From Myxococcota bacterium (GTDB lineage Bacteria; Myxococcota_A; UBA9160; JAFDDA01), in assembly GCA_965228475.1 (NCBI GenBank), contig OZ245817.1, positions 1,888,001 to 1,952,000 on the forward strand: a stretch of DNA of 64,000 bases. Direction: 5' to 3'. Within the stretch, counting starts at the first letter, position 1. Every line of letters begins with the position of its first letter. Under the pieces are notes generated by a model. That model searched no databases. It had not been told where the DNA came from and worked only from the letters and a program-made list of their open reading frames with translations. Of the stretch, positions 59,270-63,998 are shown piece by piece. A program made the position numbers and the translations under genes.

Positions 59270-60415
59270 TTGCAGCGCGAGCGGCTCGTCACCCCCACGC
59301 TGGCTCTCGCCTTCGCGGCGAACTTCCTCCAGGGCACGGCCTTCAACCTCTTCCTGAATCTCCCGGGCTTCCTGACGGATCTCGGCGCGACCAAGACGGA
59401 GGTCGGCCTGATCTGGGGTGTCACGGCGGCGGCGGCCATCCTTTCGCGACCGACCGTCGGCCGGATCATGGACCGCCGCGGGCGGCGCGTGATCTTCATC
59501 GCCGGGGGCGTGCTCAACGTCGGCGTCTGCGCCGCCTACCTGACCGTGGACGCGATCGGCGCCTGGGTCTCGGTGATCCGCGTGATGCACGGGGTGTCGG
59601 AAGCGATGCTCTTCTCCGGGCTCTTCACCTACGCCGCGGATCTGATCCCGCCCTCCCGGCGCACCGAGGGCATCGCCATTTTCGGCATCTCGGGGCTCCT
59701 GCCGATCTCGGTCGGCGCGGCCATCGGCGAGTGGATCGAAGTGGGCGCGGGCTACGACATGCTCTTCCTCGCGGGCTCCGTCCTCGCGGCCGTGTCTCTG
59801 CTGCTCTCGCTTCCGCTCCGGGACGTCCCGGGCGATCCCGACGCCGAGCCGCCGCGAAGCTTCAGCGCGGCGCTTCGCCAGCCGGACCTGCGGCCACTGT
59901 GGATCGCGACGGGGGTCTTCGCGACGGCCCTCGCGGCCCCCTTCACCTTCATGAAGCCCTTCGTGATGGAGAGCGGCATCGGATCGATGGCGGCGTTCTT
60001 CAACGCCTACTCGATCTCCGGGGTGGTCCTGCGGCTGCTCTTGAGCGGCCTGCCGGACCGCATCGGCGCGAAGCGGGCGCTCTTTCCGGCCATGGCCTGC
60101 CTCCTGCTCGGCTTCGTCCTGCTCGTGCGGGCCGACGGCAGCGGCGACCTGATCGGCGCCGGCATCGCCTGCGGCCTCGGGCACGGCATGACCTTCCCGA
60201 TCCTGATGGGCCTGGTCGTCTCCCGTGCGCGGGACGCGGAGCGTGGCGCGGCGATGGCGACCTTCACCGCGCTCTTCGACGTCGGCATGCTGGTCGGCGG
60301 GCCGCTCTTCGGTGGACTGATCGACGCCCGGGGCTACGCCGCGGCCTTCGCCGCCGGTGGCGCGCTGCTCGCGACTGGCGCGTGCGTCTTCGCGTGGCAG
60401 GATCGGGGCCGATGA
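59270..60415 (+). CDS. MFS transporter
   Basis: GRIMDRRGRR motif A, second repeat LPDRIGAKR, about 12 hydrophobic segments. TTG start. Confidence 0.88.
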   Translation: MQRERLVTPTLALAFAANFLQGTAFNLFLNLPGFLTDLGATKTEVGLIWGVTAAAAILSRPTVGRIMDRRGRRVIFIAGGVLNVGVCAAYLTVDAIGAWVSVIRVMHGVSEAMLFSGLFTYAADLIPPSRRTEGIAIFGISGLLPISVGAAIGEWIEVGAGYDMLFLAGSVLAAVSLLLSLPLRDVPGDPDAEPPRSFSAALRQPDLRPLWIATGVFATALAAPFTFMKPFVMESGIGSMAAFFNAYSISGVVLRLLLSGLPDRIGAKRALFPAMACLLLGFVLLVRADGSGDLIGAGIACGLGHGMTFPILMGLVVSRARDAERGAAMATFTALFDVGMLVGGPLFGGLIDARGYAAAFAAGGALLATGACVFAWQDRGR

Positions 60416-61356
60416 AACGGATCCTGCTCGGCATGGCGTGTGCGGCCTTCCTCGGATGTGCGGAGCCCTGGCAGCCGCCGGGCCTCGAGCCCCATCGTGA
60501 GGCCCTCGCCGCGCTGCCGGACCACCGGCTGCGCGACGCGACGCCGTACCTGCTGCCCGTTCGGGGGGAACTGATCGAGTTCTTCTGCCGCTGGCCGTCG
60601 AACGAGCCGGTGCGCATCGCCTTGCCCGGGGATGCGACACCGGACGAACGACGCGCTCTCGAAGCCGCCGTCGCGGCGTGGCAGGGTCTCGATCTCGGCA
60701 TCGCGCTGGCCGTGGCCGAGCCGGCGGGGCCGGCGGAGATCACGGTCGAGTTCCTCGCACCCGAGAGCACGTCCCGCGCCGAGGGGACGGGCTACACGCT
60801 GGCGGACTGCCGCCTCGAGGAGACCGGCGCCGAGGCGCTTCGCGGCGCGGTGCTCCCCGCCCACCTCGAGCGCGCCCGGATCCGGATCGTCCGCCGGGAG
60901 ACCGACGAATGGGACGCCGCCGACCACGCGTGGTTTGCCGGCGAGGTGGCCGGCGTGGCGCTCCACGAACTCGCCCACGCCCTGGGGTTCCAGGGGCACG
61001 CCCGCTTCGGGGGCGGCATCCTGGCCCAGAGCACCAAGGAGAGTACGAAGGTCGGCCGCGCGCTCCTTGCGGGGGCCGCCTTCGACGAGCCGACGCTCCG
61101 GGCGCTCTACGGGCTCCCGAGCGGCGTGGTCCTCGCGCGCACGCCGATCCCCCACCCGCGGACCGCGGCACTCGACGCGTGGTGGGTGAGAGCGGCGCGC
61201 CAGGAGGGCCCCTTCATCCGCGTCGGCGACCGGACCGGCCGGATCTTCTGGCGCTTCGAAGGAGACAAGGAAGCCGGCGTGACGCTGGCTTCGATCACGA
61301 CGGCACGAAGCAAACCCGAGCGACTCGTCCTGCTGAGCGATCCCCGGCCGCGCTAG
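60412..61356 (+). CDS. Lipoprotein with metzincin-like zinc metallopeptidase motif
   Basis: Lipoprotein signal MKRILLGMACAAFLG-C; zinc motif HELAHALGFQGH. Confidence 0.7.
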   Translation: MKRILLGMACAAFLGCAEPWQPPGLEPHREALAALPDHRLRDATPYLLPVRGELIEFFCRWPSNEPVRIALPGDATPDERRALEAAVAAWQGLDLGIALAVAEPAGPAEITVEFLAPESTSRAEGTGYTLADCRLEETGAEALRGAVLPAHLERARIRIVRRETDEWDAADHAWFAGEVAGVALHELAHALGFQGHARFGGGILAQSTKESTKVGRALLAGAAFDEPTLRALYGLPSGVVLARTPIPHPRTAALDAWWVRAARQEGPFIRVGDRTGRIFWRFEGDKEAGVTLASITTARSKPERLVLLSDPRPR

Positions 61357-61401
61357 GTGCGCCCAGCTGGTCTGATCCAGTGTAGGATGCCGCTCCTGGA
61401 G

Positions 61402-62607
61402 ATGAGCGAATCCAAGCAGACAAAGATCTTGCTTAGCTACCGCCGAGACGACGCCGAAGGCTATGCCGGACGTATCTACGATCGCCTAGTGGCTGAGTTT
61501 GGAGAGAGTCGAGTCTTTATGGACGTCGACGAGATGGCCCCTGGTGCGAACTTCCTTGAGGTCATCGAACGCTCACTTGAGGAGAGCGCCGTCTTCGTGG
61601 CGGTCATCGGTACCAACTGGCGCGGTCCCCTTAGCACGGGAGGTCAGCGGATCGACCAGCCCGGAGACTTCGTCAGGCACGAGGTATCTCGCGCACTGGA
61701 ACGTGAGGATGTACTGGTCGTGCCGGTACTCGTGCGGGGGGCAAGAATGGCCGCGGCCTCCGAGCTTCCGGGCGAGCTTCGGGCTCTTGCCTCCCTGCAC
61801 GCGCACGAGCTGACCCATCCACGCTGGAACTACGATCTCGACCGACTGGTTTCTCGGGTTCGCGAGTCACTGCCGAGCCACGACACCGCGTCTCGGGATC
61901 TGAACTCGGTCCTGAGATCGATGAGGTCAGATTTTCAGTTCCTCACCCGCGTCTTCATGCAGCGGCCCACGCTGACGATCTCTGCTTTCGTGTTGGCGCT
62001 CTGTTGGATATGGCTCTCAGCGACTGGGCCAGTTCTCGCTGAGGCAGGCATCGACGTTCCTGTGGTCCCTCACTCGCTACCAGAGCGGTTCGTTCTGACC
62101 GATCTGACGACGGATGCGGTGAGTCTCCGCGTACAAGGGGTTCGGTCCCATGTCACGGAGCTGCTTCAGAGAAATGATCTCGAATACCCACTGAATCTGA
62201 GTGCGGCGAACCTTGGAGAGAGCTGGTACGAGGTGAACGAGCTACTGGTCAGTCTTCCCGACGGCATCAGGGTCGTCTCTCGGGCTCCGAGCCAGATTCG
62301 AGCGAAGTTTGATCTAAGGTCTCAGCGCTTCGTCCGAGTCAGGCCCGACATAGTCGGCGAACCGGCGCCAGGTTTCATTCTTCAGGAGGTCTCAGTCGTT
62401 CCACCCCGTGTGCGTATTTCTGGAGCTCGGAGTTCGGTCTTGAGAGTGTCCGAAGTATCGACTGAGACGGTCGATCTCGATGGCGTCGCTGCGTCATTCG
62501 AGAAGGAGGTTCGATTCTCCCTCCAAGGCGAGAACATGTGGATCGACGACGCTCAGTCGGCGACGTTGACGGTGACGATACGAAGCGCGCAGCCGGAATC
62601 TAGCTAG
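61402..62607 (+). CDS. TIR domain - transmembrane helix - YbbR/CdaR-like fusion protein (alternative starts 61357, 61387)
   Basis: TIR: ILLSYRRDD, VFMDVDEMAPGANF, FVAVIG..W, DFVRHEV..AL, VVPVLV. TM: TISAFVLALCWIWLS. YbbR-like repeats: DVPVV..LP...VSLRVQG...LNLS...LPDGIRVVSRAPSQI and VRVRPDIVGEPAPGF...VVPPRVRISGA...VSTETVDL. Lower GC than the flanks. Confidence 0.85.
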   Translation: MSESKQTKILLSYRRDDAEGYAGRIYDRLVAEFGESRVFMDVDEMAPGANFLEVIERSLEESAVFVAVIGTNWRGPLSTGGQRIDQPGDFVRHEVSRALEREDVLVVPVLVRGARMAAASELPGELRALASLHAHELTHPRWNYDLDRLVSRVRESLPSHDTASRDLNSVLRSMRSDFQFLTRVFMQRPTLTISAFVLALCWIWLSATGPVLAEAGIDVPVVPHSLPERFVLTDLTTDAVSLRVQGVRSHVTELLQRNDLEYPLNLSAANLGESWYEVNELLVSLPDGIRVVSRAPSQIRAKFDLRSQRFVRVRPDIVGEPAPGFILQEVSVVPPRVRISGARSSVLRVSEVSTETVDLDGVAASFEKEVRFSLQGENMWIDDAQSATLTVTIRSAQPESS

Positions 62608-63998
62608 CCCTTCTTTTCGAGGGACTTCGCGCGGTCGAGGAGCTCCTGCGCGCGCTCCGCCTCGCCGAGCTTGCGCAGTACCATGCCCAGGCGGAAGCAC
62701 AGGAGCGGGTCGTTCGGCTTGGCGGCCTGGGCGAGCTCGAGGTGCTCGCGGGCGCCATCCCGGTCGGCCGGGCGGTTCTTGTAGAGGGCCCAGCCGAGGG
62801 CGCCCTGGTAGTCCGGCTCGTCGGGCCATAGCTCCACGCACGGCTTCAAGAAGTCGAGGGCGCCGCCGAAGTTTCCGATCTTGATCATGATCTCGGCCTT
62901 GCGGAAGAGCGTCTCGGCCTGGGCCAGCCGGTTCGCATCGCTCGAGGGCGTTCCGCCGGCGTCGCCCGCCTGCTTGGCGTCGTACTCCTTGCGCCGCCCC
63001 TTGTCGGAAAGGGTCTGGTACGCCTGGGCGATGCGCGCGAAGAGCTCGTTGGCCTCGCGGTGCAGGGAGGCGAGTCCGACGCGCGCCAGCGCATCCGGGT
63101 GGGCCCGCTTCGCGAGCTGGAAGTAGGCCTTCTTGATCGGTCCTTCGCCCGCGTCGGACGGCACGCCGAGGAGCTCGTAGTGGCTGAGTTCGTCGATCCG
63201 TTCGTGCTTCTCGAGAATCTCCTTGCGGAGCTGCTCGGCCTCGGGCGAGAGGGCGGCGTCGGTCCCACCCGGACCGTGACTGCCCGCGGTGTCGGAGGTC
63301 GCGTCGTCGTCGGGCGCATCCTCGAAGAGGAACTCGAGGGTGGGCTCCGTGTCCTCGCCTTCGGCGGCGTCAGCAGCTTCGCCCGGCTCACCCGCGGCGG
63401 GGTCCGCGGGCGGGCCGTCCTGGAAGGCGAGGGCACCGCTCTCGGCGAGGAGCCAGGCGCAGGCGAGGCGGTCCGGCGAGGGCGAGCGGTAGACCGCTTC
63501 TCCGAACGTTCGCATCGGGTCGAGGTCGTCGAGCAGGCCGCCGCCGTCCGCCGGCGCTTCGAGTCGCGCAGAGAGCGCCTCGAAGGTCTCGCTCGGAACC
63601 GCGTGCTGCGAGAGGCGCGCCTCGAGATCTGCGAGCAGGCGCTCGACGCTCCAGTGCGTGGCGAGACCCTGCTGCACGATGACGATCGGGTCGACGCGGA
63701 AGGCCTGGGCTTCGTCGCGCCCGGCGTCCGCCGCTTCGAAGCGGAACCGTCCATCGGGCCAGGAGAAGGCGTCGACGATGCGGCGGCGCACCTGGTCGCG
63801 CAGGGCGACGAAGAGCTCCTTCGGTTCGATCAGCTTGAGCGCAAGGAGGGCCGCTCCTTCCCGTGCGCCTCGATCCTTCACGTACGCGGACACGCGCTCC
63901 TGGTCCTCGGCGCTGATGCGCTCGGCGGAGACGAGCTGCGCACCGAGGCTCTCGCGCGCGAGGTTCGACTCGACGAAGACCGGGACGCCGGCGTCGAG
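62604..63998 (-). CDS. DUF4388-like / DnaJ J-domain / TPR protein, 5'-truncated by window edge
   Basis: N-terminal GVPVFVESNL..ESLG..LV and FSWPDGRFRF pattern. J-domain SHYELLGV...IKKAYFQLAKRAHPD...AYQTLSD..RRKEYD with HPD. C-terminal TPR-like helices. Frame is open to the window end. Confidence 0.82.
   Translation of the reverse strand, partial: LDAGVPVFVESNLARESLGAQLVSAERISAEDQERVSAYVKDRGAREGAALLALKLIEPKELFVALRDQVRRRIVDAFSWPDGRFRFEAADAGRDEAQAFRVDPIVIVQQGLATHWSVERLLADLEARLSQHAVPSETFEALSARLEAPADGGGLLDDLDPMRTFGEAVYRSPSPDRLACAWLLAESGALAFQDGPPADPAAGEPGEAADAAEGEDTEPTLEFLFEDAPDDDATSDTAGSHGPGGTDAALSPEAEQLRKEILEKHERIDELSHYELLGVPSDAGEGPIKKAYFQLAKRAHPDALARVGLASLHREANELFARIAQAYQTLSDKGRRKEYDAKQAGDAGGTPSSDANRLAQAETLFRKAEIMIKIGNFGGALDFLKPCVELWPDEPDYQGALGWALYKNRPADRDGAREHLELAQAAKPNDPLLCFRLGMVLRKLGEAERAQELLDRAKSLEKKG

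Follow-up and report, generated by a model that had tools for sequence, protein, structure and literature searches.

The TIR enzymes of bacteria are known from anti-phage systems, in which they are cytoplasmic components, and the switching on of such enzymes from outside the cell has hardly been explored. Enzymatic TIR domains need to self-associate in order to form their active site. One account is consistent with this requirement (PMC8635717). The TIR domain of SARM1 is reported to branch within a bacterial clade, and a transmembrane (TM) tether restrains the NADase TIR domain of the amoeba protein TirC (PMC13142454). The YbbR-repeat protein CdaR, the regulator of the diadenylate cyclase CdaA, belongs to a separate field, the biology of cyclic di-AMP (c-di-AMP). 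CdaR is attached to the membrane, exposed at the surface and bound to CdaA, and may sense wall damage or envelope tension (PMC10117814). Here, we describe a gene in which these two kinds of protein are joined. The gene lies at positions 61402..62607 of a 64,000-nucleotide stretch of DNA (hereafter the window) from a Myxococcota bacterium (contig OZ245817.1, positions 1,888,001 to 1,952,000, forward strand). It encodes an N-terminal TIR domain, a TM helix and two YbbR repeats.

The fusion gene and its product

The fusion is confirmed and is far beyond what chance would produce. The gene is almost certainly intact, and encodes a single-pass inner-membrane protein made up of a TIR domain, a linker, a TM helix and a CdaR-like C-terminal half. 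The order TIR-TM-YbbR-YbbR had been proposed from the bare sequence in a first-pass annotation. It is borne out by Pfam matches to TIR_2 and YbbR, and by hydropathy; the borders proposed for the parts were correct to within a few codons. The features are as follows, with positions in the window.

61402..62607, + strand: whole gene; one frame, 401 codons plus stop
61426..61848, + strand: TIR_2 domain, predicted to be of SARM1 type, residues 9-149; from Pfam, the clade profile, an AlphaFold2 model and Foldseek
61681..61683, + strand: Glu94 codon, candidate catalytic Glu (DFVRHE); invariant in 24/24 clade members
61849..61965, + strand: basic linker, residues 150-188, between the TIR domain and the helix; includes Met173
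61966..62040, + strand: predicted single TM helix, CdaR-type, residues 189-213; from Kyte-Doolittle hydropathy, with A195 and W204 kept
62056..62307, + strand: YbbR repeat 1, the more diverged, residues 219-302; Pfam profile positions 1-80 of 81
62332..62577, + strand: YbbR repeat 2, residues 311-392; best Pfam stretch, profile positions 1-80 of 81
61335..62616, no strand: 1.28-kb stretch missing from a same-genus genome; from comparison of the flanking genes and from GC content

No internal stop interrupts the frame. Two alternative starts are in frame, at 61357 (GTG) and 61387 (ATG). The start at 61402 leaves 11 residues ahead of the [S/N/A/C]YRR motif, and the equivalent distance in TIR relatives is 3-12 residues. 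The public gene call (P0003) begins instead at Met40 (61519) and is 362 amino acids long. This removes the first strand and helix of the TIR domain, and the precomputed Pfam assignment of P0003 is YbbR only. Since the public call truncates the TIR domain, annotation-based searches of domain architecture would miss TIR-YbbR fusions. At the 3' end, the stop codon TAG (62605-62607) overlaps the stop codon CTA (62604-62606) of the convergent DnaJ-DUF4388-TPR gene. The two stops form the palindrome CTAG and leave no intergenic room for a terminator.

The first-pass annotation had allowed that the fusion might be a chimeric assembly, with halves that are not joined in real DNA. No point supporting this explanation was found. 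The genome is one 5.0-Mb contig, and the stretch is present in contigs from 3 public runs belonging to 2 studies. Two contigs of 17,467 nt cover positions 60800-63200 with 0 differences; the genome may itself have been built from them. In the third run, a separate 608-nt contig covers positions 61510-62117, and so includes the end of the TIR domain, the linker and the helix and reaches into the ectodomain. Neither joints nor differences were recorded for the contigs over the junction. GC composition is also uniform along the gene. Together, these observations make a chimera extremely improbable.

The TIR half was compared with Pfam, with its own relatives and with solved structures. PF13676 (TIR_2) matched residues 9-149 of the whole protein at 44.7 bits (cut-off 28), and scored 47.5 bits against residues 1-170 alone. 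In an alignment of the fusion TIR with 23 relatives, 20 columns were invariant, including Y13, R14, R15, D89 and E94. The last of these is the αC glutamate of DFVRHEV; the first-pass annotation had described it as kept, and it is found in 24/24 aligned clade members. At positions at least 90% conserved in the 23 relatives, defined with the fusion left out, the fusion keeps 38 of 41. The relatives themselves keep 35-41 of 41-43.

A phmmer search of PDB sequences with the fusion protein alone gave no match at E <= 0.01. The profile of the 24 clade members matched SARM1 TIR chains over the whole domain (E 2.5e-14), and the clade consensus for the E94 helix, DfVrlE, aligned over SARM1 DWVHKE. We take the Glu of this SARM1 motif to be the catalytic E642; a PDB entry with 'Sarm1 E642A' in its title was among the Foldseek matches. 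For the fold comparison, residues 1-170 were modelled with AlphaFold2 from the 24-sequence alignment. The mean predicted local distance difference test score (pLDDT) was 89.2 and the predicted TM-score (pTM) was 0.84. Foldseek returned 107 PDB matches to this model at E <= 0.001, and the top ranks were all SARM1 or TIR-1 TIR domains. An example of the best matches is 9mw2_B (TM-score 0.71/0.87, root mean square deviation 2.6 Å). Outside SARM1 and TIR-1, the first match listed was AbTir (rank 33), and plant TIRs and SPARTA came after it; TRIF and TLR6, whose TIR domains are scaffolds, were at ranks 39-50. Judged by its sequence and its predicted fold, the TIR half has the features of the SARM1-type enzymatic TIR family.

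The genome also encodes two further TIR_2 proteins (C1:451051-451395 and C1:1378212-1378556). One has an N-terminal TIR domain and a long tail, with no Pfam match in the 653 amino acids covered. The other has an N-terminal TIR domain followed by TPR repeats, and its gene adjoins one with an adenylate/guanylate cyclase domain.

The C-terminal half was matched by PF07949 (YbbR) in two stretches, scoring 54.6 bits (cut-off 22.3); repeat 1 alone reached 19.2 bits, which is under the cut-off. The genome has a resident operon, cdaA (297 amino acids)-cdaR (219 amino acids, two YbbR repeats)-glmM (453 amino acids), on the minus strand at C1:2480396-2483602. It contains the sole DAC-domain gene of the genome (C1:2482657-2483010), some 530 kb from the fusion. 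The 219-amino-acid protein is encoded between the DAC-domain gene and glmM, and is therefore the resident CdaR. Residues ~180-394 of the fusion align with residues 3-209 of the resident CdaR at 39% identity (E 2e-43). The homology covers the cytoplasmic stub of CdaR (FLTR) and the helix, with FQFLTR beginning at residue 178. Hence, the earlier suggestion that this half reads like an entire CdaR-type protein is upheld. Identity to other CdaRs is up to 47%.

Alignment of the CdaR half with short CdaRs gave 23 columns invariant across 20 sequences. In the helix, A195 and W204 are invariant in 20/20 short CdaR-type sequences. Among order-level relatives, cdaA is directly upstream of the short cdaR in 9/9 loci examined. 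The comparison with the genome's own cdaR that the first-pass annotation had suggested was made in a maximum-likelihood tree of 25 sequences. The CdaR half fell within the short two-repeat CdaR clade of the order (support 99/97), and the resident CdaR was not its sister. It is on a long branch, and its exact placement is unsure. The helix and two YbbR repeats are a diverged copy of a whole short CdaR. Two hallmarks of CdaR are absent. The gene does not share an operon with cdaA or glmM, and the N-terminus is not a short cytoplasmic segment free of other domains; ~175 residues of TIR domain and linker precede the CdaR part. By these features the fusion is derived from CdaR but is not a CdaR.

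Only one hydrophobic segment, residues 189-213, was detected in the fusion (Kyte-Doolittle mean 1.86 over 19 amino acids; segments were called from 19-amino-acid windows with a mean above 1.6). The charges flanking it are +3/-1 on the N side and 0/-2 on the C side. This asymmetry suggests that the N terminus, with the TIR domain, is cytoplasmic and that the YbbR repeats are outside. The single-TM, N-in/C-out arrangement proposed earlier thus agrees with hydropathy and with the flanking charges. A LolA-like gene nearby suggests a two-membrane envelope, in which case 'outside' would be the periplasm. About 32 residues separate the end of the TIR domain (~residue 157) from the TM helix, and the median in 128 TIR-TM relatives is 28.5. 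Within the linker, Met173 (an in-frame ATG, 61918-61920) is six residues ahead of the first CdaR-aligned residue. It may be what is left of the start codon of the captured cdaR; no clear ribosome-binding site was found before it.

Occurrence and origin of the fusion

The first-pass annotation knew of no described TIR-YbbR fusion. A second example was found in none of our searches of proteins, contigs, plasmids, phages and the literature. A word-indexed search of 5.8 billion proteins gave 105 matches, and only the window's own product (P0003) covered both halves. When 1.84 billion representatives were searched exhaustively with phmmer, 35,107 matches were obtained. The best 150 of these were examined, and P0003 was the only one with both parts; a fusion scoring below ~135 bits would be hidden, as would, in annotation-based searches, any TIR-YbbR layout with a TIR-truncating gene call. 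Pfam scans of 40 of the 150 (28 two-stretch and 12 single-stretch matches, 10 of the latter with alignments extending beyond the TIR domain) found YbbR in none. Local profiles were also run against 266 stored proteins. The TIR profile matched 243 and the CdaR profile 25, and both matched only the fusion's own records (P0001, P0003).

Searching with the YbbR part only gave 10 matches, none with a TIR domain. The CdaR profile matched 4 longer proteins, again none with TIR, although this is weak evidence. Genome contigs (2 loci), metagenome contigs (2 loci) and plasmids (5 records) matched in the TIR part only. There was no match in phages, and no usable match in the ESM Atlas. A literature search for YbbR or CdaR combined with a TIR domain found nothing relevant. 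The top two-stretch relatives from the phmmer search (P0108-P0143) are tandem TIR-TIR proteins of 320-720 amino acids, some of which add EAD1, biotin-lipoyl, TPR or FGE-sulfatase domains.

The layouts of 241 retrieved TIR relatives were then compared. The commonest, in 128, is an N-terminal TIR domain followed by a hydrophobic segment. The others are an N-terminal TIR domain with no segment (83), a segment ahead of the TIR domain (22) and other arrangements (8). Among the 128 TIR-TM relatives, 88 have one hydrophobic segment only, and in 115 the segment is followed by 60 residues or more. Of these 115, 107 were scanned against Pfam, 99 in a main scan and 8 separately. In the main scan, 78 proteins had TIR_2 only and 21 had a further domain. 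These further domains were PD40 propellers, PASTA, PG_binding_1 with RTX repeats, SH3_3, CHASE2, CzcE, FGE-sulfatase, Sel1/TPR, protein kinase, VHL-beta and several DUFs. The 8 proteins scanned separately include PG_binding_1, SH3_3 and DctP domains. In the 8 long or multi-segment proteins outside the Pfam scans, there was no match to the CdaR profile.

Many ectodomains of this class bind cell-wall or periplasmic ligands. The fusion has the same layout: an N-terminal TIR domain, a linker of ~30 residues, a TM helix and a C-terminal extracytoplasmic domain. Since TIR-TM-ectodomain is the commonest arrangement in the clade, the receptor-like layout of the fusion is not unique; only its CdaR ectodomain is. 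Thus, the fusion is a new ectodomain in a widespread receptor-like TIR class, and is the only TIR-CdaR combination found. A brief literature search found no paper describing the TIR-TM-ectodomain class. The loci of two TIR relatives (L026, L027) have a housekeeping context.

The fusion gene differs in composition from its host. Its GC content is 0.594, compared with 0.7045 for the genome, and is equally low in 0.47% of 16,684 gene-size windows. GC content at third codon positions (GC3) is 0.67 for the gene, with 0.69 in the TIR half and 0.65 in the YbbR half. For host genes, GC3 is 0.945 (resident cdaR) and 0.89 (downstream gene). In a same-genus genome (G001), a single contig carries both flanks (68-71% nucleotide identity), and 1,282 nt (61335-62616) are missing; the stops of the upstream gene and of the convergent gene are 10 nt apart. 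In a same-family genome (G002), the flanks are 451 nt apart (1,634 nt in the window), too close together for the fusion gene to fit. Residues 1-128 had no match in any of 40 relatives, from genus to order, and 40/40 of these relatives matched the CdaR part only, at 29-44% identity. Because both halves have the same foreign composition, the simplest explanation is that the fusion existed in the donor and arrived as one gene. Hence, the fusion gene was acquired horizontally, probably ready-made, and is found in the source genome only among those compared. The borders of the insertion have short repeats at chance level, with no target-site duplication or terminal inverted repeats, and no transposase, integrase or tRNA was found there.

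The neighbourhood was scanned across 17 flanking open reading frames, ~10 kb upstream and ~14 kb downstream. Upstream are uvrC, an aspartyl protease, comEC, an S9 peptidase, an APH-type kinase, a major facilitator superfamily (MFS) transporter and a hypothetical lipoprotein. Downstream are the DnaJ-DUF4388-TPR protein, a response regulator with an HD-GYP-type domain, and others. As the first-pass annotation had noted, no cdaA or Thoeris partner is adjacent. The gene adjacent upstream (59731-61356, + strand, likely start near 60415) encodes a predicted lipoprotein (MKRILLGMACAAFLGC...) with no Pfam match. The lipoprotein gene is conserved beside the MFS gene in the TIR-less same-genus genome, and so did not come in with the TIR gene as its partner. 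The fusion gene lies 45 nt behind this co-oriented gene; read-through transcription is thus possible. Further away, ~9 kb past the end of the window, is a minus-strand gene (L028:9303-12086) for a 927-amino-acid MMPL/RND-type membrane protein with a C-terminal PF00027 cyclic-nucleotide-binding domain. It adjoins the LolA-like lipoprotein-sorting gene.

A possible mechanism and its rivals

The arrangement of the protein suggests a receptor that controls a TIR enzyme. The membrane tether and ectodomain would hold TIR domains apart, with the ectodomain and helix governing how the protein is spaced or clustered in the membrane. If what the CdaR-type module or its YbbR repeats contact were to change, the TIR domains would come together; the cue could be the state of the cell wall or envelope. 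A composite active site around Glu94 would then cleave NAD+. The likeliest output would be NAD+ loss with growth arrest; a diffusible signal derived from ADP-ribose would be the alternative. We favour depletion because no receiver gene arrived with the fusion, and because there is no curated defence match beyond a weak and partial one to the TIR domain. The catalysis, mode of activation, cue and physiological role in this scheme are ones that we infer. As a whole, we give envelope-controlled NAD+ cleavage about an even chance of being correct.

Several results weigh against it. The fusion is a single copy in one genome, within the searches made, and so there is no orthologue to show long-term selection on the fusion itself. 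The branch of the CdaR half is 1.65 changes per site, compared with a median of 0.38. Of 40 CdaR-conserved positions the fusion keeps 33, whereas 38-40 of 40-44 are kept in true CdaRs. The seven losses spare repeat 2, and six of them are at residues 241-304. The long branch and the lost positions could reflect relaxed constraint. At the level of expression, no good ribosome-binding site was found upstream of 61402, and a promoter scan of the locus gave 0 promoter-like sites. A terminator scan gave 2 terminator-like sites compared with 1.0 by chance, and no recognisable terminator. There was no RNA dataset among the public runs containing the stretch. The TM helix and the topology were called with a simple rule based on hydropathy and charge and not with a dedicated predictor. 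The full-length AlphaFold2 model, made from a single sequence, had a pLDDT of 36.1 and was unusable. Mixed alignments of TIR-only and CdaR-only sequences misplaced 47-106 CdaR residues under the TIR domain, and so gave no alignment-based model at full length. Finally, the scanned neighbourhood contained no defence, stress or mobile genes. The immune role put forward in the first-pass annotation fares poorly on this point: the genes around the fusion are of a housekeeping kind, with no defence island, and the matches to curated defence models are weak and partial.

The complete CdaR at the C-terminus raises the possibility that the CdaR-derived helix and ectodomain still bind CdaA, or CdaA-CdaR-GlmM. 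It could in that case serve as guard, decoy or point of cross-talk. Its TIR domain could be parked at the c-di-AMP synthase and fire on disturbance, or envelope status could control NAD+ and c-di-AMP jointly. In favour of this, the CdaR half is complete, with the FLTR stub and the TM helix with A195 and W204; it falls among the short CdaRs of the order (99/97), which are encoded directly after cdaA in 9/9 loci of relatives examined; and the genome offers one cdaA-cdaR-glmM operon. CdaR binds CdaA directly (PMC10117814, Table 1). Even the fast evolution of the CdaR half would be expected of a decoy under conflict. Conversely, the donor was of different composition, and the CdaR half is 39% identical to the resident CdaR and not its sister; hence, its fit to the host CdaA is not assured. 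In addition, 7/40 CdaR-conserved positions are lost, the gene is neither in nor near the cdaA operon, and among TIR relatives the ectodomain behaves as a swappable sensor and not as a docking piece. We regard docking to CdaA as possible but on the unlikely side. A bolder version, which strikes us as decidedly unlikely, is that a mobile TIR enzyme, of a death or signalling kind, captured an entire CdaR and so plugs into the essential CdaA-CdaR-GlmM complex. As a guard or integrated decoy, it would turn tampering with this checkpoint into destruction of NAD+, the tampering agent being a phage, toxin or antibiotic acting on the cell-wall/c-di-AMP checkpoint. If true, it would connect TIR immunity with c-di-AMP machinery for the first time, and would parallel in bacteria the integrated decoys of plant NLR immune receptors.

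Another explanation is an evolutionary accident, in which a recently acquired or formed fusion is expressed little or not at all, drifts, and has no function in its host. The fusion occurs once (among the best 150 matches from 1.84 billion representatives, and among 40 relatives), its CdaR half is on a long branch, no promoter-like site was found, its stop overlaps that of the convergent gene, and the public gene call has no recognised TIR part. We nonetheless consider an accident unlikely. The 401-codon frame is uninterrupted, conservation in the TIR half matches that in its relatives (38/41), and repeat 2 keeps every CdaR-conserved position. The common foreign GC3 of both halves indicates that the fusion predates transfer and survived in the donor lineage, and the gene follows a co-oriented neighbour at 45 nt. 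There is also a slim chance that the TIR domain acts under the control of the ectodomain but without NAD+ depletion, either as a scaffold for protein contacts or as an enzyme with a different substrate, for example NAD-capped RNA. Scaffolding is a known role of TIR domains, and some bacterial TIRs strip the NAD cap from RNA (PMC10937652, PMC8635717); the two other TIR proteins of the genome could be partners. However, the solved structures nearest to it in profile and in fold are TIR domains with NADase activity, those of SARM1, the Glu is kept, and the scaffold TIRs of TLR and TRIF rank far lower (39-50).

The fusion also has a wider interest. It is the one case found in which the ectodomain has a known partner (CdaA) and a suspected cue (the state of the cell wall or envelope). 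It may therefore serve as an entry point to the periplasmic triggering of membrane-tethered TIRs and, in c-di-AMP biology, to what YbbR domains sense. The weight of the finding is limited because a single occurrence stands behind the proposed role.

Comparison with known systems

SARM1 offers the closest match to the TIR half, both by profile (E 2.5e-14) and by predicted fold (TM-score 0.70-0.87). The two share the YRR strand motif, the BB-loop region and the D-x-V-x-x-E helix with its Glu. Their control differs. SARM1 is cytosolic or associated with mitochondria and is controlled by ARM and SAM domains, whereas control of the fusion would fall to a membrane helix and a periplasmic CdaR-type ectodomain. 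Like CdaR, the fusion has a cytoplasmic stub, one TM helix and YbbR repeats. Unlike CdaR, it is encoded outside the cdaA-cdaR-glmM operon, carries the ~175 extra N-terminal residues, sits on a long branch and has lost 7/40 conserved positions.

The fusion resembles the TIR proteins of anti-phage systems (Thoeris ThsB, CBASS and Pycsar effectors, SPARTA TIR-APAZ, AbTir) in having an enzymatic TIR fold with the Glu, and oligomerisation-driven NAD+ chemistry would be expected of it. Its matches to curated models were weak and partial: 36.2 bits (cut-off 220) for the NCBIfam model ThcB4, and E 2.5e-5 over 60 residues for PADLOC ThsB1. The scanned flanks (~10 kb upstream, ~14 kb downstream) encode no partner, be it ThsA, a cyclase, an Argonaute or another. 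In contrast to CBASS and Pycsar TIR effectors, the fusion has no nucleotide-sensor domain (SAVED, STING or other) and no adjacent cyclase; the PADLOC SAVED_TIR model matches only the N-terminus of the TIR domain (E 2.8e-4). The fusion is not a Thoeris, CBASS or Pycsar component.

A likeness to Toll-like receptors is topological only. The polarity is reversed, since the ectodomain of those receptors is N-terminal, and the sensors are not homologous. ToxR and CadC have their output domain at the N-terminus, inside the cell, and their sensor at the C-terminus, outside. The fusion differs from these bitopic receptors in that its output is a TIR domain, not a DNA-binding domain, and in having no sensor homology, but it is like them in that one polypeptide, with one TM helix, has its sensor outside and its output inside.

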